Shown piece by piece: positions 5,450 to 30,600 of a stretch of 36,041 bases of DNA. The notes under the pieces are model-generated. The model searched no databases and was not told where the DNA came from. It saw only the letters and a program-made list of their open reading frames with translations. A program made the position numbers and the translations under genes. Positions within the stretch are counted from its first letter, which is position 1. Each line of letters starts with the position of its first letter. The DNA is from an uncultured Candidatus Saccharibacteria bacterium (lineage in GTDB: Bacteria > Patescibacteriota > Minisyncoccia > Minisyncoccales > CG1-02-41-26), in assembly GCA_964383715.1 (NCBI GenBank), contig CAYLHU010000001.1, positions 79,975 to 116,015 of the forward strand, in the 5' to 3' direction.

Positions 5450-5509
5450 ATTAGAGATTGTTAATGAGTGAATGCGGAGCATTCACGAATGTTACAATGT
5501 CTTACACCC
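5450..5509 (-). promoter_or_regulatory. shared leader cassette (variant) upstream of deoC
   Basis: Minus strand: GGGTGTAAGACATTGTAA, then the hairpin GTGAATGC..GCATTCAC, then TCATTAACAATCTCTAAT-ATG. Confidence 0.55.
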
Positions 5510-5610
5510 AGCACTTATTTTTACGGAAGTATTAGAAGGGTTTTAATTTTGTAATTCTAAGCGATAATGTTAATGCCTATTTTGTGTTTCTATAGAAATA
5601 AGTGCTGGGT
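5506..5610. mobile_element. MITE-like element, long form (copy 1), TIR ACCCAGCACTTATTT / AAATAAGTGCTGGGT
   Basis: Perfect 15-bp terminal inverted repeats. The interior is homologous to the other five copies. Confidence 0.75.
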
Positions 5611-14394: not shown

Positions 14395-14515
14395 AAAGGA
14401 AGGAAGGAAAAAGTGTAAAAGTGTAAAAGTGAGTAAGTGGACAAGTGAGTAAGTGGACAAGTGGATAAGTGAGTAAGTGGGTAAGTGAGTAAGTGTTGGA
14501 ATGTTGGAATGTTAG
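14395..14515. repeat. period-8 word array (GTGTAAAA, GTGAGTAA, GTGGACAA, GTTGGAAT)
   Basis: Seen directly, immediately upstream of the pheT start. Confidence 0.75.
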
Positions 14516-14558: not shown

Positions 14559-14874
14559 AGGTGCGTTTTGAAGGCGATGAGGGATTACCCTCATCTTTGC
14601 TCCTCGCTATGCTTGTCGCAGGCGATGAGGGATTACCCTCATCTGTGAGTCCACAAAGTGGGCGAATAAAGATGAGAGCAAAGCTCTCATCGCTTAACTC
14701 GCTCACTTTGTTCGTTTGGTGCGATCGTCCAGAAACGCACCTGTTTTTTACACGAAGAAAAGAAAATATAAAAGGTTCATTCTGGGACGATCGTCCAGAA
14801 ACGAACCTGTTTTTTTACACGAAGAAAAGAAAATATAAAAGGTTCATTCTAGGACGATCGTCCAGAAACGAACC
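14559..14874. repeat. composite hairpin repeat (unit X with internal duplications)
   Basis: It contains 2 copies of GATGAGGGATTACCCTCATC, the hairpin GATGAGAGCAAAGCTCTCATC, the hairpin GGTGCG..CGCACC followed by a T-run, and 2 copies of a module of about 63 bp with GGACGATCGTCC. Confidence 0.85.
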
Positions 14875-20887: not shown

Positions 20888-21964
20888 TTATAACAGGTTT
20901 AAAACATCTTTTATTGTTACGACAAACATCAAAACAAGCAAACAGACAAAACAAAAAATGGTAATGCCCTGTTCTATTTTTTGAGAAATAGGTTTCTTGC
21001 GTATCCCTTCAATAATTAAGAATAGAAGTTTCCCTCCGTCTAAAGCTGGAATCGGTAAAATATTAAATAAAGCCAGCCAAACGGCAATCATCGCCACTAA
21101 AATCAAGAAACTATCCACCCCCGTATTTAGCGCCTGCCCCATTACATCAACTACTCCTATTGGACCCATAAGCTCTACTCCTTCGGTCTTTTCTCCTTTT
21201 AAAAAGTTTCGAAAAACACCGCCTAAAACAATTGGGATTTGAATCGTTTTCTGATAAGTTACTACCGCTCCTATATATAATGACTTAGACCAAGAGTATT
21301 TAACCTTACTCACTCTAACCAAAGCAACCCCAATCGCCCCTTCATCTTCTGGCGAAGAAACTCGCGGGATTAAAGAAACTTCGGAAATTTCCCCTCCCCT
21401 TTGAATAGTTAGAACGATTTCCTCTCCTTTATGGGTCTCGCTAAACTCCTGAATTTCTTTGATTTTGCTTATTCCCAATTTTTCATTTTCAATTTTTAAT
21501 TCTCTGATAATATCCCCCATTTTTAAATCAGCTTTTAAGGCAGGAGAGTCCTTTGATACTCCAACAATTTGAACATTTGATTCTCCGGGAAAATCATCAG
21601 AAACGGCAGTTGGTAACCCCCAAACCCCGGAAATCAAACTGAAAATAATAAAAGCCACGATCCAAAAGGAAACGACTCCCCCCAAAACTATCAGGGCCCT
21701 TTGCCAAATCGGTTTTTCGGGGAAACTTCTTGAATCTTCAATTTGACCTTCTTCTCCCTTTATCTTGACAAAAGCGCCAAATGGAAGAAGATTTAGTGAA
21801 TAAAAGGTCTCTCCAATTTTCTTCCCGAAAAGACGAGGAGGGTAACCAATGCCAAACTCTTCTACCTCCACGCCAAACTTTTTAGCAAGAATAAAATGAC
21901 CAAACTCATGAATAGTTAGTAATAAAACCAAAGATATAATAACGATTAAAATTGTTAAAAACAT
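20888..21964 (-). CDS. rseP: RseP-like site-2 (M50) zinc metalloprotease with PDZ domain
   Basis: HEFGHFILAKKFG (HExxH), a central PDZ-like segment, NILPIPALDGGKL, multiple TM helices. Confidence 0.85.
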   Translation of the reverse strand: MFLTILIVIISLVLLLTIHEFGHFILAKKFGVEVEEFGIGYPPRLFGKKIGETFYSLNLLPFGAFVKIKGEEGQIEDSRSFPEKPIWQRALIVLGGVVSFWIVAFIIFSLISGVWGLPTAVSDDFPGESNVQIVGVSKDSPALKADLKMGDIIRELKIENEKLGISKIKEIQEFSETHKGEEIVLTIQRGGEISEVSLIPRVSSPEDEGAIGVALVRVSKVKYSWSKSLYIGAVVTYQKTIQIPIVLGGVFRNFLKGEKTEGVELMGPIGVVDVMGQALNTGVDSFLILVAMIAVWLALFNILPIPALDGGKLLFLIIEGIRKKPISQKIEQGITIFCFVCLLVLMFVVTIKDVLNLL

Positions 21965-22028
21965 ATTAGAAGATGTTTCCGCTTAAGTTTTTACTCCGTA
22001 AAAAGTTAAGCGGATTACAGATTCTTAT
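21965..22028 (-). promoter_or_regulatory. shared leader cassette (full form) upstream of the rseP-like gene
   Basis: Minus strand: GGGTATAAGAATCTGTAA, then the hairpin CCGCTTAA..TTAAGCGG, then GCGGAAACATCTTCTAAT-ATG. Confidence 0.6.
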
Positions 22029-22133
22029 ACCCAGCACTTATTTATATGAAAATATTACAAGGGTTTTAACTTTATAAAACTAAATGATAATGTTAACCCC
22101 TATTTTGTTTTTCTGTATAAATAAGTGCTGGGT
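22029..22133. mobile_element. MITE-like element, long form (copy 2)
   Basis: Same TIRs, about 105 bp, same orientation as copy 1. Confidence 0.75.
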
Positions 22134-22151
22134 TAGACAGAGCAAAGCTTT

Positions 22152-22709
22152 TTACCCCGCTATTTCTTTTTCTTTATTTTCAACTAAGTTTTTTATTTTA
22201 TCCTTATAGTCCTTAATTAAGTCCTCTAATTTCTCTTTCCCCCGAAACTTATCGTCTTCACTAATCTCTTTTTTTTGAAAACCGTCTTGCATATCCTTCC
22301 ATGCCTTATCACGCAATCTTCTAATAACTTGAAAAATATTTTCTTTCTTTTCGTTCAAAATTTTAATTAAGTTCTTTTTAGAGTCCTCTGTTAGAGAGGG
22401 TGCCGAAAGATAAATAGTATTTCCTTCTATCCTAATCCCCATTCCCAATTTTCTCTCTTCAATGGACTTAATAACCCCCTCAACATAGCTTTTATCCCAA
22501 AGTTGAATTGACATTCCCCTTAAGGGAGAAACTGAAACAATCCCTAATTGTTTCAAGGGTAAAACCGAACCAAAACAATCTACCTTAATTTCTTCTAACA
22601 AGGCAACTGGTGGCTTCCCGACTCTTATTTCTAATAATTGCCCCTTAAAAAAATCTAAGGATTTCTCAATTTGAGGTTTTATATTGTCAATAATTTCTTG
22701 ATAAGACAT
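22152..22709 (-). CDS. frr: ribosome recycling factor
   Basis: Typical RRF layout (...IRVGK..P.LLE.I.V..YG...PL.Q...) and 185 aa from MSYQEII. The 10 upstream codons (..AETSSN) are the translated shared leader. Confidence 0.9.
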   Translation of the reverse strand: MSYQEIIDNIKPQIEKSLDFFKGQLLEIRVGKPPVALLEEIKVDCFGSVLPLKQLGIVSVSPLRGMSIQLWDKSYVEGVIKSIEERKLGMGIRIEGNTIYLSAPSLTEDSKKNLIKILNEKKENIFQVIRRLRDKAWKDMQDGFQKKEISEDDKFRGKEKLEDLIKDYKDKIKNLVENKEKEIAG

Positions 22710-22730
22710 ATTAGAAGATGTTTCCGCCGA
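22710..22730 (-). promoter_or_regulatory. shared leader motif upstream of frr
   Basis: Minus strand: GGCGGAAACATCTTCTAAT-ATG, abutting a MITE-like TIR. Confidence 0.6.
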
Positions 22731-22810
22731 ACCCAGCACTTATTTGTACAGAAAAACAAATTTATAAAGTTAAAACATTTGTAATACTTTTATAGAAATA
22801 AGTGCTGGGT
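22731..22810. mobile_element. MITE-like element, short form (copy 3)
   Basis: Same TIRs, 80 bp, opposite internal orientation. It lacks the internal segment of about 25 bp. Confidence 0.75.
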
Positions 22811-22832
22811 TTGGCAGATTACAGATTCTTAT

Positions 22833-22912
22833 ACCCAGCACTTATTTATACAGAAAAACAAATTTATAAAATTAAAATCTTTGTAATACTTCCGTATAAA
22901 TAAGTGCTGGGT
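22833..22912. mobile_element. MITE-like element, short form (copy 4), tandem with copy 3
   Basis: Same TIRs, 80 bp, 22 bp after copy 3. Confidence 0.75.
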
Positions 22913-23811: not shown

Positions 23812-23937
23812 TTACGAATAGTATGATACAAATCTACGAATCTAATGCTAATCTACAAATCTACGAATTTGGTATCGTGTTAATTCGTAGCATTCGTAAT
23901 TCGTAGATTCGTGTTTATTCGTAGATTAGTATCGCTA
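23812..23937. repeat. about 125-bp imperfect-palindrome element rich in ATTCGTAG / CTACGAAT words (copy 1)
   Basis: It fills the mreB2-holB spacer. Over its whole length it is the reverse complement of the copy at 27931-28060. Confidence 0.75.
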
Positions 23938-24945
23938 TTATTTTTTAGTTGTTAAGCTTTTCTTATAGAAATCCAAGTTTTCCAAGACCACCCCTACCCC
24001 CTTAATAACACAAAATAAAGGGGCCTCCCCGATAAAACAAGGAACAGCAATTGTTTTAGATATCAATTGTTCAATATTCCTTAATAAAGAGCCACCACCG
24101 GTCATAATCATCCCCTTGTCCATAATATCAGCTGCAAGTTCCGGTGGGGTTTTTCTTAGAACTTGCTTGATTGCCTCTATAATTTCTTCTAAGACCTCTT
24201 TCAGGGCTCCGACTAATTCGTTAGAATAAATTTTGACACTTCTGGGTAATCCGGAAATTATATCTCTTCCCTTCACTTCAATAAAATTTTCCTTTTTTTG
24301 AGGGATAGCTGTCCCAATCTTTATTTTTATCTCTTCGGCTGATTGAGTGCCGATAACTAAATTATATTTCTTCTTAACATATTCGGAAATAGCTGTATCC
24401 ATTTTATCCCCACCTACTCTAACCGAAGAAGATGTTACAATCCCCCCTAAAGAAATAACCGCAATTTCCGATGTCCCCCCGCCGATATCAATAACCATAT
24501 TTCCTTGGCTGGAATGAATAGGTATCCCCGCTCCTATAGCCGCCAATATCGGCTCTTTGGCCACGAAAGCCCTTTTGGCTCCCGAAGTTAAGGCCGCCTC
24601 AATAACCGCCCTTCTTTCAGTTGATGTTGCTCCGGCCGGCACGGAGATGACTAAATCAGGCTTAAATGGATTAAATCCCTTTTGGGCTTTAGTAATAAAA
24701 TGCTTAATCATTGCTTGAGTAACTCGGTAATCGGCTATAACCCCATCTTTCAAAGGACGATAAACTTTTATCGTTTCCGGTGTTCTCCCAATCATTAATT
24801 TGGCCTCTTCTCCAACAGCCAAAATCTTCTTTTCCGGTTCAGACAAGGCAACTACAGATGGCTCTTGTAAAATTATCCCTTTTTTGGGAATAAAAACCAG
24901 CGAGTTACATGTCCCCAGATCTATGGCAATTTTTGTGACAAACAT
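23938..24945 (-). CDS. mreB: MreB paralog (copy 2)
   Basis: KIAIDLGTCNS, IDIGGGTSEIAVISLGG and GGGSLL motifs, 335 aa. Clearly related to the copy at 18322-19374 but diverged from it. Confidence 0.85.
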   Translation of the reverse strand: MFVTKIAIDLGTCNSLVFIPKKGIILQEPSVVALSEPEKKILAVGEEAKLMIGRTPETIKVYRPLKDGVIADYRVTQAMIKHFITKAQKGFNPFKPDLVISVPAGATSTERRAVIEAALTSGAKRAFVAKEPILAAIGAGIPIHSSQGNMVIDIGGGTSEIAVISLGGIVTSSSVRVGGDKMDTAISEYVKKKYNLVIGTQSAEEIKIKIGTAIPQKKENFIEVKGRDIISGLPRSVKIYSNELVGALKEVLEEIIEAIKQVLRKTPPELAADIMDKGMIMTGGGSLLRNIEQLISKTIAVPCFIGEAPLFCVIKGVGVVLENLDFYKKSLTTKK

Positions 24946-25573: not shown

Positions 25574-26254
25574 TTAATCTTCTTTTTTTATTTTCTCTTT
25601 AAAATCCTGCCACTTCATTTCTTTTTTCCCAGCTATTTTGCAAATAGAACGAAAAGGACAATACCGGCACTGCCAATTACGAGGATAATCGGAAATAATA
25701 GAGGGAATAATATTAGAATTAATTTTATTTTGGAGGGACTTGAAATTAATTAAAAGTTTTTTACAAAGATTCAAATTATATTTTATTACGAATTCCCTTA
25801 ATTCTTGTCTGTCCTTGTCCACATATAAAAGAATCCCTTTTTTAATATTAAAATAATGAAGATAAAGTTGAATTTGATAAATATTCTCTTCTTTTGGCTG
25901 TTCTAACTTCCGAAAAGACATACTATTTATACTTTTAATGTCTAAAACAAAAAGCTCACTATCGATACTTAAAATAGCATCGGCTCTTCCCGAAATCATT
26001 TCTTGGGGAGGGATTTTTATTTCGGCTGCTACCACAATCCCCAACCTAATCAAGGTATTAGTGAGAGTCCGATGGAAATAATCCCCCTGCTCAAAAACTC
26101 TTAATATTCGTGCGTCTAATCTTTTCTCGGGAAGATTTTTAAATTTAAAAAAAACCGCCCGCTCACATTTGCCGGCATCGGTAACATAAAAATGAAACCT
26201 TTCTCTATTTCTTTCCTGTTCCAAATAAAATTTATCAATAAGCTCCCTTAACAT
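25574..26254 (-). CDS. Cas4/RecB-like PD-(D/E)XK nuclease with 4-Cys (Fe-S type) cluster, orphan
   Basis: N-terminal Cys (DAGKCERAVFF), GDYFH, GRADAIL, VLDIKS (D-x-K), QIQLYLHY (QxxxY) and C-terminal CRYCPFRSIC. I placed the start at MLRELID because the upstream codons (..AKTSSN) are the shared leader. Confidence 0.7.
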   Translation of the reverse strand: MLRELIDKFYLEQERNRERFHFYVTDAGKCERAVFFKFKNLPEKRLDARILRVFEQGDYFHRTLTNTLIRLGIVVAAEIKIPPQEMISGRADAILSIDSELFVLDIKSINSMSFRKLEQPKEENIYQIQLYLHYFNIKKGILLYVDKDRQELREFVIKYNLNLCKKLLINFKSLQNKINSNIIPSIISDYPRNWQCRYCPFRSICKIAGKKEMKWQDFKEKIKKED

Positions 26255-26282
26255 ATTAGAAGATGTTTTCGCCGAACCCAAG
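26255..26282 (-). promoter_or_regulatory. shared leader motif upstream of the Cas4-like gene
   Basis: Minus strand: GGGTTCGGCGAAAACATCTTCTAAT-ATG. Confidence 0.6.
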
Positions 26283-26316: not shown

Positions 26317-26464
26317 GTAGATTGGTATCGTGTAATTCGTAACATTCGTAGCATTCGTAGCATTCGTAATTCGTAGATTCGTGTTTATTCGTAGATTGGT
26401 ATCGTGTTGATTCGTAGCATTCGTAATTCGTAGATTCGTATTCATTCGTAGATTGGTATCACAC
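26317..26464. repeat. ATTCGTAG-word element, two tandem partial units
   Basis: GTAGATTGGTATCGTGT..ATTCGTAGCATTCGTAATTCGTAGATTCGT..TTCATTC is repeated twice. It fills the spacer between rpsI and the Cas4-like gene. Confidence 0.75.
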
Positions 26465-27115
26465 TTACCTCTTTGACCATTGTGGGGCTTTTCTTGCTCT
26501 CTTAAGACCGAATTTCTTTCTTTCTCTCATTCGAGGATCTCTGGTCAAAAAACCAGCTTTTTTTATTTTTTTTCTAAAATAAGGATTAACCAAAACTAAG
26601 ACCCTAGAAATACCGTGTCGGCAAGCCCCAGCTTGAGAAGACAATCCCCCTCCTTTGACTAAAATAGAAACTGTAAACTTATCAGAGCAATTTAGTATTC
26701 TTAAAGGGGCTTCTATTTCTTTTTGAAAAGCAATATCCGGGAAATAGGATTTATAAGGTTTTTTGTTAACCAAGATATCTTTCTTCACTTGAACGGTCTC
26801 TTCGCCATCTTTTGAAGAAAGTGGCGCGCTGGTAAAAAGACGAACTCTCGCTGTTGAAGTTTTTCTTCTCCCCACCGCCTCAAAATACTTTGAAATGGTT
26901 TTTTTCTTCTTATCTTCCCCCTTCTCCCCCTTTTCTGTCTTTTTTTCTTTTATCCCCCCTTCAATCTTTTTCTTTGGATTAATTGACTTAACCCCTTTTT
27001 TAATTACTTGCTTATCCCTTGAACTCACAGAAGAAATGGGTGAAGATGACAACTCCGTTGCTGTTGCCTGTTCTTTTTTTATTTCGTCTTTAATTTTGGT
27101 TTTTTTTTCAATCAT
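26465..27115 (-). CDS. rpsI: 30S ribosomal protein S9 with an N-terminal K/E-rich extension of about 80 aa
   Basis: The core GRRKTSTARVRL ... GGGLSSQAGACRHGISRVL ... TRDPRMRERKK.G...ARK..Q.SKR starts near residue 80. The ATG lies 5 nt after the rplM stop. Confidence 0.9.
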   Translation of the reverse strand: MIEKKTKIKDEIKKEQATATELSSSPISSVSSRDKQVIKKGVKSINPKKKIEGGIKEKKTEKGEKGEDKKKKTISKYFEAVGRRKTSTARVRLFTSAPLSSKDGEETVQVKKDILVNKKPYKSYFPDIAFQKEIEAPLRILNCSDKFTVSILVKGGGLSSQAGACRHGISRVLVLVNPYFRKKIKKAGFLTRDPRMRERKKFGLKRARKAPQWSKR

Positions 27116-27474: not shown

Positions 27475-27570
27475 AAAATATTATTTAAAATTAATGTTGT
27501 CCGTTACATGCTACATGTTACATGTTACATGTTACACATTACATGTTACATGTTACATGCTAAACGCCCT
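27475..27570. repeat. period-7 word array (TTACATG about 8 times)
   Basis: Seen directly. It fills the rplQ-rplM spacer. Confidence 0.75.
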
Positions 27571-27916
27571 AAACCAATTCTATTATCGCCATTTTGGCTC
27601 CATCTGATTTTCGAGGACCCAATTTAATAACCCGGGTATATCCACCATTTCTACCCTTATAGCGAGGGGCAATCTCATCAATAAGTTTCTTGGTTAATGT
27701 CTTAGAAAAGAATTTCAATAAATATCGAGTTGAAGCCAAGTCTCCTTTTCGAGCCCTAGTTAAAATTTTCTCGGCTCGGCTTTTCAACTCCTTCGCTTTT
27801 ACTTCGGTTGTTTTAATTTTTTCGTGTAAAAAAAGTTGAGCGCTCAAACTTCTAAACAGCGCCTTCCTTTGGTCAGCTTTTCGAGAAAACTTTTTTTTAT
27901 TTATCATTTTCCGCAT
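27569..27916 (-). CDS. rplQ: 50S ribosomal protein L17
   Basis: Reads ..L.RK.DQRKALFRSL...L..HEKI.TT..KAKEL, with GGYTRVIKLGPRKSDGA, 115 aa. Confidence 0.95.
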   Translation of the reverse strand: MRKMINKKKFSRKADQRKALFRSLSAQLFLHEKIKTTEVKAKELKSRAEKILTRARKGDLASTRYLLKFFSKTLTKKLIDEIAPRYKGRNGGYTRVIKLGPRKSDGAKMAIIELV

Positions 27917-27930
27917 ACAACAAATTGTCC

Positions 27931-28060
27931 CGATACTAATCTACGAATAAACACGAATCTACGAATTACGAATGTTACGAATCACGAATAATTTATTTGT
28001 AGATTTGTAGATTAGCATTAAATTTGTAGATTTGTATCATATTATTTGCAGATTTGCATC
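27931..28060. repeat. ATTCGTAG-word element (inverted copy)
   Basis: CGATACTAATCTACGAATAAACACGAATCTACGAATTACGAATG... is the reverse complement of 23871-23934. It fills the rpoA-rplQ spacer. Confidence 0.75.
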
Positions 28061-29038: not shown

Positions 29039-29130
29039 GTAGCGTGTAGTGTGTAGCGTAAAACGTAGAAATTAAATTTTACAAGTTACAAGTTACAGGT
29101 TACAAGTTTTAAGTTACAAGTTATAAGGTT
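29039..29130. repeat. word arrays (GTAGCGT/GTAGTGT, then period-7 ACAAGTT about 6 times)
   Basis: Seen directly. It fills the rpsD-rpoA spacer. Confidence 0.75.
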
Positions 29131-29922: not shown

Positions 29923-30375
29923 TTATACTCTCCTTGGTTTTTTGGGACGGCAACCATTATGAGGGATTGGCGTTATATCTTGAATACTCTCAATCTCTAA
30001 CCCCTGGCTCACCAACGATTTCAAGGCGGTATTTCTCCCCCCTCCAACTCCTTTAATAAAAATACTAATTTTTTTTATTCTCAATTTTTCACAAATAAGA
30101 GCTACCGCTTGGGCAACTTTTGACGCCGCATAAGATGTCCCTTTTTTTGTTCCCTTAAACCCAATAGCGCCAGCACTTCTTGAAGCCAAAACATCTCCAC
30201 TTTCATTAGTTAAAGTGATAATAGTATTGTTATAAGTTGAAGAAATATAAACCCTCCCACCCCTAAATTTTTGGGTTGGAGAAATAGAAATTTCTTTTCG
30301 GAAACTTTTATCTACTTTTTCCCTTTCAGATAAAATCTCCTTTTCTGTTTTTTTAACAACTCTTTTCTTCCCCAT
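29923..30375 (-). CDS. rpsK: 30S ribosomal protein S11
   Basis: NNTIITLT...G.....SAG..GFKG.KK.T.YAA and TPIPHNGCRPKK.RRV, 150 aa. Confidence 0.95.
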   Translation of the reverse strand: MGKKRVVKKTEKEILSEREKVDKSFRKEISISPTQKFRGGRVYISSTYNNTIITLTNESGDVLASRSAGAIGFKGTKKGTSYAASKVAQAVALICEKLRIKKISIFIKGVGGGRNTALKSLVSQGLEIESIQDITPIPHNGCRPKKPRRV

Positions 30376-30396
30376 ATTAGAAGATGTTTTCGCCTA
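30376..30396 (-). promoter_or_regulatory. shared leader motif upstream of rpsK
   Basis: Minus strand: GGCGAAAACATCTTCTAAT-ATG, abutting a MITE-like TIR. Confidence 0.6.
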
Positions 30397-30476
30397 ACCC
30401 AGCACTTATTTCTATAAAAGTATTACAAATGTTTTAACTTTATAAATTTGTTTTTCTGTACAAATAAGTGCTGGGT
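30397..30476. mobile_element. MITE-like element, short form (copy 5)
   Basis: Same TIRs, 80 bp. It starts 21 nt upstream of the rpsK ATG. Confidence 0.75.
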
Positions 30477-30498
30477 TAGACGGGTTACAGATTCTTAT

Positions 30499-30600
30499 AC
30501 CCAGCACTTATTTCTGAAACACAAGATAGAGATTAACATTATCGTTCAGATTTATAAAGTTAAAACCCTTGTAATATTTCCATAGAAATAAGTGCTGGGT
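30499..30600. mobile_element. MITE-like element, long form (copy 6), inverted relative to copy 5
   Basis: Same TIRs, about 102 bp. Confidence 0.75.

Follow-up and report, generated by a model that had tools for sequence, protein, structure and literature searches.

The window examined in this study is a stretch of 36,041 nt from contig CAYLHU010000001.1 of an uncultured Candidatus Saccharibacteria bacterium, and it carries a family of short intergenic elements that end in 15-bp inverted repeats. The genome assembly to which the window belongs is labelled G000 below, and positions without a contig label are window coordinates. The 15-mer ACCCAGCACTTATTT and its reverse complement occurred 12 times in the window, and all 12 occurrences were exact; in dinucleotide-preserving shuffles of the window, the mean number of occurrences was 0.08 and the maximum was 1. 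The 12 arms paired as ACCCAGCACTTATTT...AAATAAGTGCTGGGT into six elements, three of 80 bp and three of 102–105 bp. The 80-bp elements lie at 22731..22810 (proximal copy) and 22833..22912 (distal copy) in the holB/frr spacer and at 30397..30476 in the rpsM/rpsK spacer. The longer elements lie at 5506..5610 in the tmk/deoC-like spacer (105 bp, gene-less, with exact 15-bp ends), at 22029..22133 in the frr/rseP spacer (105 bp) and at 30499..30600 in the rpsM/rpsK spacer (102 bp). Alignment showed that one 25-nt internal block was the sole difference between the long and the short form. The interiors were homologous and were found in both orientations; the copies at 22731 and 22833 had the same orientation, and those at 30397 and 30499 were inverted relative to each other. 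The initial annotation had described six copies with 15-bp terminal inverted repeats, two size classes separated by an insertion of about 25 bp, both orientations, and one tandem and one inverted pair, and all of this was confirmed. Its placement of the copies in spacers was also correct for the four spacers named above, but Pfam assignments showed that the last pair is on the rpsM side of rpsK and not on the rpsD side, as had been proposed. By the same assignments, the genes flanking the window copies are all on the minus strand. The interiors of 50–75 nt contained no open reading frame (ORF), so the elements of 80–105 bp are small and non-coding in the sense used for miniature inverted-repeat transposable elements (MITEs).

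The G000 assembly (582,530 bp, 46 contigs, 35% G+C, 93% complete) contained 25 elements in 19 spacers on 9 contigs, including 11 short and 14 long copies, and every copy was intergenic. The whole-genome search thus showed that the family is not limited to one contig region, which agrees with the mobile-element reading of the initial annotation. Among the 50 arms, 47 were exact and 3 had one mismatch, and no further decayed paired copies were found in G000 at up to 3 mismatches. Compared with the family consensus, the ends differed at 0.3% of positions, and the interiors differed at 10.4% (long) and 4.9% (short), with Fisher p values for ends against interiors of 2e-13 and 4e-5, respectively. 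Seven short copies from different loci, the one at 22731 among them, were 100% identical. The copies on contigs C8 and C20 were long-sized, with almost unrecognisable interiors and perfect or near-perfect ends. Judged from these comparisons, the ends are strongly constrained and the interiors are drifting. The elements were bordered by ...CTTT/ACCC, ...CCGCCWA/ACCC and GGGT/ATAAGAAT, where the slash marks the element boundary. Target-site duplications, which the initial annotation had suggested looking for, were missing: direct flanking repeats of 3–9 nt were found at none of the 25 copies, and a repeat of 2 nt was found at one copy.

Motif tables and folds showed that the window elements are modules of a larger polar hairpin cassette, not described in the initial annotation, that extends from stop codon to start codon. 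On the gene strand, the order at every locus was the TAA of the upstream gene, hairpin H1 (AAAGRGYTTGG...loop...CCAAACCTTT), the element, the B linker (ATAAGAATCTGTAATCCGCCAA), a small apical hairpin (ACTTTTTACTTCGTAAAAACTT) or a second element, the A linker (T.GGCGGAAACATCTTCTAAT) and the ATG. In the fold, the B linker pairs with the A linker to form hairpin H3. The similarity between cassettes ended precisely at the stop codon and the start codon. In the frr/rseP spacer, the element at 22029..22133 is hairpin H2, and H3 occupies 21965..22028 (minus strand) upstream of the rseP ATG (21962-21964), with the A linker at 21965-21983, the apical hairpin at 21984-22008 and the B linker at 22009-22028. 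In the holB/frr spacer, the A linker GGCGGAAACATCTTCTAAT at 22710..22730 abuts the frr ATG (22707-22709), and the B linker ATAAGAATCTGTAATCTGCCAA at 22811..22832 joins the two elements. In the rpsM/rpsK spacer, the A linker at 30376..30396 abuts the rpsK ATG (30373-30375), and a B linker lies between the two elements at 30477..30498; all four linkers are on the minus strand.

The A linker, a 19-nt sequence, directly adjoined the ATG of approximately 17 unrelated genes, some of them without an element. For example, a solo A linker (GGCGAAAACATCTTCTAAT) was found by repeat search at 26255..26273 (C1:106229-106247, minus strand) before the ATG at 26252-26254, so the linker is a separate module. 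The approximately 17 genes share it as a repeat-borne 5' leader, in a genome that makes nearly no use of Shine–Dalgarno sequences: of 398 genes, only 7 had GGAGG upstream, and the starts are preceded by an A/T-rich region with T at -1. Because of this, the ...TTCTAAT-ATG of the linker fits the local start context. The polarity of the cassette relative to transcription was fixed: at every locus, H1 was on the stop-codon side and the A linker on the ATG side. The orientation of the interior inside the cassette was random, approximately 6:5 for long copies and 4:7 for short copies, and identical interiors were found in both orientations at the same distance of 21 nt from start codons. The genes downstream of the cassettes are core genes and, outside the window, include mraZ, nusB, rplO, rpsC, rplV, rpsS, ftsZ, pilM, pilN and the gene of a 968-aa protein. 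Compared with shuffles, the z scores of the spacer folds were -9.05 for frr/rseP and -11.74 for rpsM/rpsK, and the folded spacers left UCUAAUAUG unpaired. The element interiors by themselves were structured no better than shuffles (mean z = -0.5).

None of the 60 nearest relatives carried the ends; when another 150 genomes of the class were examined, a single copy was found in one and none in the other 149. The closest metagenomic relative found via Frr (L118, 63% identity) keeps the gene order mreB-holB-frr-rseP, and no element was found in its holB/frr (201 nt) and frr/rseP (64 nt) spacers. Conservation at orthologous positions would have pointed to a regulatory RNA, according to the initial annotation; the empty spacers of this syntenic relative and the absence from the other relatives favour the mobile-element reading instead. 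On this distribution, the elements do not appear to be a conserved regulatory RNA. In the Rfam search of the window, only tRNAs reached the gathering score, and permissive scans that included the Omnitrophota and Planctomycetales copies returned generic miRNA-hairpin noise far below threshold. Matches resembling promoters and terminators were not above chance, and viral contigs gave no match. The literature on the end sequence yielded unrelated primers only, and nothing specific was found on MITEs in the candidate phyla radiation (CPR). CIRCE, attC, dif and DNA-uptake sequences were also considered and were dropped on sequence or architecture.

The same ends were found in distant phyla. A scan of species-representative genomes with the pattern CCAGCACTTATT-N(52-82)-AATAAGTGCTGG detected at least 111 loci, compared with 0.13 expected by chance according to our own estimate. 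Among the matches listed were at least 14 Omnitrophota metagenome-assembled genomes (MAGs), Phycisphaerae, Planctomycetales and approximately 11 Patescibacteria of several classes, together with WOR-3, Aerophobetes and one Clostridia MAG. The ends occurred in at least 7 phylum-level groups, and the distribution across genomes was patchy and crossed phyla. The interiors were unrelated between lineages and formed multi-copy subfamilies inside single genomes, and the loop between the arms ranged from approximately 9 to approximately 230 nt. Since the stem is constant and the distance between the arms is free, the functional unit is likely to be the folded stem rather than two double-stranded half-sites. 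Clustering of the ORFs at 110 repeat-bearing loci revealed no family that recurred beside the repeats, and ends at a spacing of 225–255 nt, the gene-carrying size, were found in 0 of 401 sampled Patescibacteria genomes. In Omnitrophota and Planctomycetales, the hairpin was again the centre of a three-hairpin cassette, which terminated in the ...AAGGAGG ribosome-binding site of the host.

At the loci L136-L148 from Planctomycetales and Omnitrophota, the stem was flanked by two inverted 'M' hairpins (nnnAACTTAYGG...CRTAAGTTnnn) whose outer stems co-varied, and the cassette ended in CTCATTGAAGGAGG, which provides the ribosome-binding site for the next gene. A Phycisphaerae MAG (G062) carried approximately 64 element copies and no small GIY-YIG gene. 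Many of its contigs broke exactly at an element, so assemblies may undercount the copies.

In other genomes, the ends enclose a gene. At the locus L143 of a WOR-3 MAG, one pair of ends lay 255 bp apart, and a 77-aa ORF that encodes a GIY-YIG domain (Pfam PF01541, E = 5e-13) occupied precisely this space. The 86-bp gene-less copies of this MAG corresponded to the 259-bp element minus 173 internal bases, and 83 of 86 bases were identical. The two forms stand in the classical relation of a MITE to its autonomous parent, with the shorter form derived by internal deletion. A collection of 5.8 billion proteins contained 85 homologues of the 77-aa protein, with lengths of 74–124 aa, and the DNA around the gene was examined for nine of them. 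Seven of the nine genes, from WOR-3, Fidelibacterota, Staskawiczbacteria and several groundwater contigs, were enclosed by ACCCAGCACTTATTT/AAATAAGTGCTGGGT. One homologue (57% identity) had the variant end ACCCAGCACTTAG, and the most distant one (52% identity) had different ends. The loci with an enclosed GIY-YIG gene were L143 (WOR-3), L187 (Staskawiczbacteria), L189 (Fidelibacterota), L179, L190-193, L194-197 and L200; L190-193 lies between ssb and rpsR, and another lies between clpP and a trmO-like gene.

The complete form is 259–292 bp and consists of two 15-bp inverted ends with a single gene for a GIY-YIG nuclease of 76–80 aa between them. Its TAA stop lies inside the 3' end, and its ATG lies 0–25 nt after the 5' end. 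A longer copy with the same terminal repeats, which the initial annotation had suggested looking for, thus exists in other phyla, but none is present in G000. Small GIY-YIG genes at 35–48% identity in the same genomes had other ends of similar style (ACCCCGTTAGAGAT, ACCCCGCACCTTTTGTG and TCCAGCACTTAATTTT) in elements of 278–356 bp. Because these more distant genes have other ends, the ends and the enzyme co-vary. Since the ends are also retained in gene-less copies, it is unlikely that they are conserved only because the enclosed gene requires them for coding or expression. Catalytic-type residues were invariant across 42 homologues, and this invariance shows the mini GIY-YIG nuclease to be under selection. 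Its fold was predicted with confidence (predicted local distance difference test, pLDDT, 90.8), and the best fold matches in the PDB were UPF0213 protein BH0048 (1ZG2, top), Slx1 and the catalytic domain of I-TevI. The profile search returned 640 clusters (50% identity) at E <= 1e-10 and 6,367 at E <= 1e-3, and NCBIfam and PDB sequence searches with the nuclease gave nothing useful.

Two G000 copies share flanking sequence with the gene-bearing loci. On contig C20, H1, the end and the first interior bases aligned to gene-bearing L179 over 87 columns with 7 mismatches or gap columns (approximately 92%), and the right flank of the C8 copy aligned to gene-bearing L190 for approximately 70 nt past the end. 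These are not orthologous loci, because the neighbouring genes differ. The shared flanks imply that the gene-less cassette of G000 and the cassettes that carry a central nuclease gene elsewhere are versions of one repeat unit. In this study, we believe, with a probability of about 0.7, that the elements belong, as MITE-like forms without the gene, to a cross-phylum family that consists of a hairpin plus a mini GIY-YIG nuclease, and that they expanded in this lineage after acquisition and now form the central hairpin of stop-to-start cassettes.

Several results weigh against this explanation. No GIY-YIG gene of this family was found in G000, either by tblastn with the 77-aa protein or with the profile of the 85 homologues on the six-frame translation (best E approximately 1), and PF01541 gave one weak match (E = 0.0016) near a contig end. 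With no cognate nuclease gene in G000, mobilisation in trans would have to be assumed there without a visible enzyme. The main G000 interiors showed no significant similarity to four gene-bearing interiors, and descent by deletion was demonstrated in WOR-3 only and weakly for the C20 copy. The idea that the G000 interiors are remnants of the nuclease ORF was rejected for this lack of similarity; a GTATTAC (the 'Y-Y' codons) near one end is suggestive at most. The fixed polarity of the cassette at every locus and the perfect ends kept in the old, diverged C8 and C20 copies fit a host-selected role equally well. GIY-YIG nucleases form no covalent intermediates from which an excised or copied element could be rejoined.

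The mechanism of movement, movement at the present time and the use of the hairpins on mRNAs by the host are matters that we infer, and we propose the following course. While the DNA is single-stranded, during replication or uptake, the two ends would pair to form a stem, and recognition is probably of this folded stem and not of two double-stranded half-sites. The nuclease would probably bind the stem and nick beside it, as SsnA does at NTS hairpins, and host repair or copying would then spread the element. The 25 copies in G000 were probably spread by a nuclease supplied in trans, which may since have been lost or may lie within the unassembled part (approximately 7%) of the genome. The copies may persist because each fits precisely into the interval from one stop codon to the following start codon, where the three-hairpin cassette around them would leave the A/T-rich translation start region free.

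A bolder form of this proposal can be stated, although we consider it doubtful. A stem of 13–15 bp plus one 77-aa GIY-YIG gene (259 bp) might constitute an entire self-propagating element, able to pass from phylum to phylum (CPR, Omnitrophota, Planctomycetota, WOR-3 and Fidelibacterota) through a hairpin intermediate of single-stranded DNA and leaving no target duplication. Combined with the hairpins at its flanks, it might act as a portable stop-to-start 'operon junction' cassette, and its gene-less derivatives would colonise even the ribosomal-protein operons of minimal genomes. Such a 259-bp element would be smaller than any autonomous prokaryotic transposon known to us.

Among described systems, the Ssn nucleases with their NTS/SRM hairpins are the closest. 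SsnA is a single-domain GIY-YIG enzyme of 94 aa (Chenal et al. 2025, PMC11893778). Its gene is flanked by hairpin repeats, which are also dispersed in hundreds of copies, and the enzyme binds the hairpin and cuts only single-stranded DNA beside it (PMC11893778). The authors of that study pointed out the layout, which resembles an insertion sequence (IS), and thousands of homologues with co-varying repeats (PMC11893778). Likewise, the gene-bearing relatives described here, though not G000, encode a single-domain GIY-YIG nuclease of less than 100 aa, the gene is bracketed by hairpin-forming inverted repeats, and the same repeat is dispersed in many intergenic copies. The repeat and the enzyme also co-vary between lineages, and the layout of gene plus repeat is IS-like. 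However, our gene lies inside one hairpin, between its two arms, whereas the ssnA gene lies between two complete small hairpins. The stems are unrelated: the SRM consensus HGTCWYN(0-2)YYVSBRHN(0-5)WNVSBRGN(0-2)RNCYNB (PMC11893778) gave 0 matches when the 25 elements were searched together with 30-nt flanks, and also 0 in the whole G000 assembly. In addition, the protein is 76–80 aa here compared with 94 aa, and G000 has the repeats but no gene.

Other families share part of these features. The Correia elements of Neisseria (CREE/NEMIS) and other bacterial MITEs are also about 100 bp, with terminal inverted repeats and two size classes that differ by an internal block, and they are non-coding, intergenic, found in both orientations and co-transcribed with their neighbours. 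In contrast, the present family has no TA or other target duplication, its coding relative is a nuclease and not a DDE transposase, and its ends are common to several phyla. GIY-YIG homing endonucleases, such as I-TevI and the free-standing Seg enzymes of T4, have the same fold, with I-TevI among the best matches, and are selfish genes that may spread via DNA cutting and repair copying. Here, however, there is no separate DNA-binding domain and no intron or intein context, and the gene has its own inverted repeats as bounds and has gene-less derivatives. The G000 elements agree with MITEs in being small and non-coding and in having terminal inverted repeats, and a longer coding element with a deletion derivative was found in other genomes only. 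The family departs from classical MITEs in having no target duplications and probably also in its partner enzyme, which is a GIY-YIG nuclease. The MITE-like reading of the initial annotation is therefore supported by the spread in the genome, the comparison with relatives and the longer copies, but it has to be qualified by the lack of target duplication, the nuclease partner and the position of the elements as modules of a cassette.

Three other explanations would assign the hairpins a function in the host. The cassettes could be RNA hairpins that are transcribed with the operon, act on the mRNA and are kept for that role whatever their origin, for example, by serving as processing sites (e.g., of RNase III), by forming barriers that protect the transcript from decay or by controlling the downstream start region. 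Every copy separates two co-directional genes of a core operon (rpsM/rpsK, rpsS/rplV/rpsC, rplO, frr, ftsZ, nusB and mraZ) in an interval that runs from stop codon to ATG; the polarity is fixed, and the spacers fold far better than shuffles, with UCUAAUAUG left unpaired. A perfect inverted repeat also yields the identical stem from either transcribed strand, and the ends are perfect even in diverged copies. We nevertheless consider this explanation unlikely, since the close relatives all lack the elements, as do orthologous spacers, which shows that the genes can do without them. Moreover, the interiors are no more structured than shuffles and are randomly oriented with respect to transcription, there is no Rfam match, promoter and terminator signals are not above chance, and an RNA role leaves the nuclease gene inside the same ends elsewhere unexplained. 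The hairpins could instead be cut sites of a nuclease on incoming single-stranded DNA that modulate the transformation of the flanked genes, as in Neisseria (PMC11893778). PilM and PilN are encoded in the genome, and both frr and rplV/rpsS are bracketed by elements on both sides. This is a very unlikely account of the present copies given that the assembly has no nuclease gene, the published SRM consensus has no match and the flanked genes are core housekeeping genes rather than variable surface genes. Least probable, almost to the point of being negligible, is an invertible switch in which a recombinase uses the 15-bp inverted repeats as crossover sites and flips the 50–75-bp interior to switch downstream expression. 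Such flipping would account for the two orientations in which identical interiors stand 21 nt from start codons. The interior, however, is only approximately 9 nt in other genomes and, even at 50–75 bp, is far shorter than any invertible segment known to us; there is no promoter signal above chance and no associated recombinase, and the targets are essential genes inside operons.

A different mobile partner was also considered, namely that the hairpins are mobilised or maintained by a transposase of the type that serves REP, BIME and REPIN repeats (RAYT, also called TnpA-REP). Like those repeats, the elements are short intergenic multi-copy palindromes without target-site duplication, they form composite arrays with alternating orientation, they are presumed to be recognised as single-stranded hairpins, and the partner gene is flanked by its own repeat. 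G000 indeed has four RAYT-like Y1 (IS200-type) transposase genes outside the window, encoding approximately 250 aa with a PF01797 match, at C2:7747-8514, C2:17876-18664, C2:28031-28771 and C3:26976-27743, and the palindromes that flank each of them are also present at several other places in the genome. However, each Y1 gene has its own, different palindrome on both sides, and ACCCAGCACTTATTT flanks none of the four. Y1 genes from other repeat-carrying genomes had no such ends nearby, no GTAG or CGTC tag was found beside the stem, and the gene repeatedly enclosed by exactly these ends encodes a GIY-YIG nuclease and not an HUH enzyme of the Y1 type. Y1/RAYT was rejected as the partner of the repeat because the Y1 genes carry their own palindromes, and we hold an explanation of this type to be highly improbable. 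The four Y1 genes with their palindromes in a 0.58-Mb genome look, in their own right, like several REP/RAYT-type systems side by side.

If the elements are members of the hairpin-plus-nuclease family, a reduced genome of approximately 0.6 Mb tolerates 25 foreign repeat copies inside its most conserved operons. This repeat load bears on how streamlined CPR genomes are and on their exchange of DNA with unrelated neighbours. An orphan repeat family is now tied to a concrete enzyme candidate, and if the 77-aa nuclease recognises the ACCCAGCACTTATTT stem, the Ssn class would gain new phyla and a new architecture, in which the hairpin encloses the gene. Such recognition would also provide a new pair of sequence-specific single-strand DNA nuclease and site, a possible tool. 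Whether a nuclease without ligation activity can drive transposition-like spread is a question now open to experiment.

In addition to this family, other repeats were observed. Upstream of mraZ, at C1:49930-50226 of G000, DnaA-box-like words (TGTGGATAA and variants) were clustered beside one element copy, and this may be an origin-type region. In the window, a tandem array of approximately 14 units of 8 nt (AAGTGnnn) lies at 14395-14506, in or beside small ORFs. A separate hairpin family, GATGAGGGATTACCCTCATC, which is unrelated to the elements, was found at 14575, 15032, 25071, 35770, 35886 and 36002, in composite arrays with GGACGATCGTCC palindromes. Short tandem-word arrays (ATTCGTAG-type and ATGTTAC heptamers), some of them mutually inverted, lie at 23817-23946, 26339-26467, 27909-28046, 27494-27562 and 29076-29123 and fill the spacers around mreB, rplQ and rpoA.

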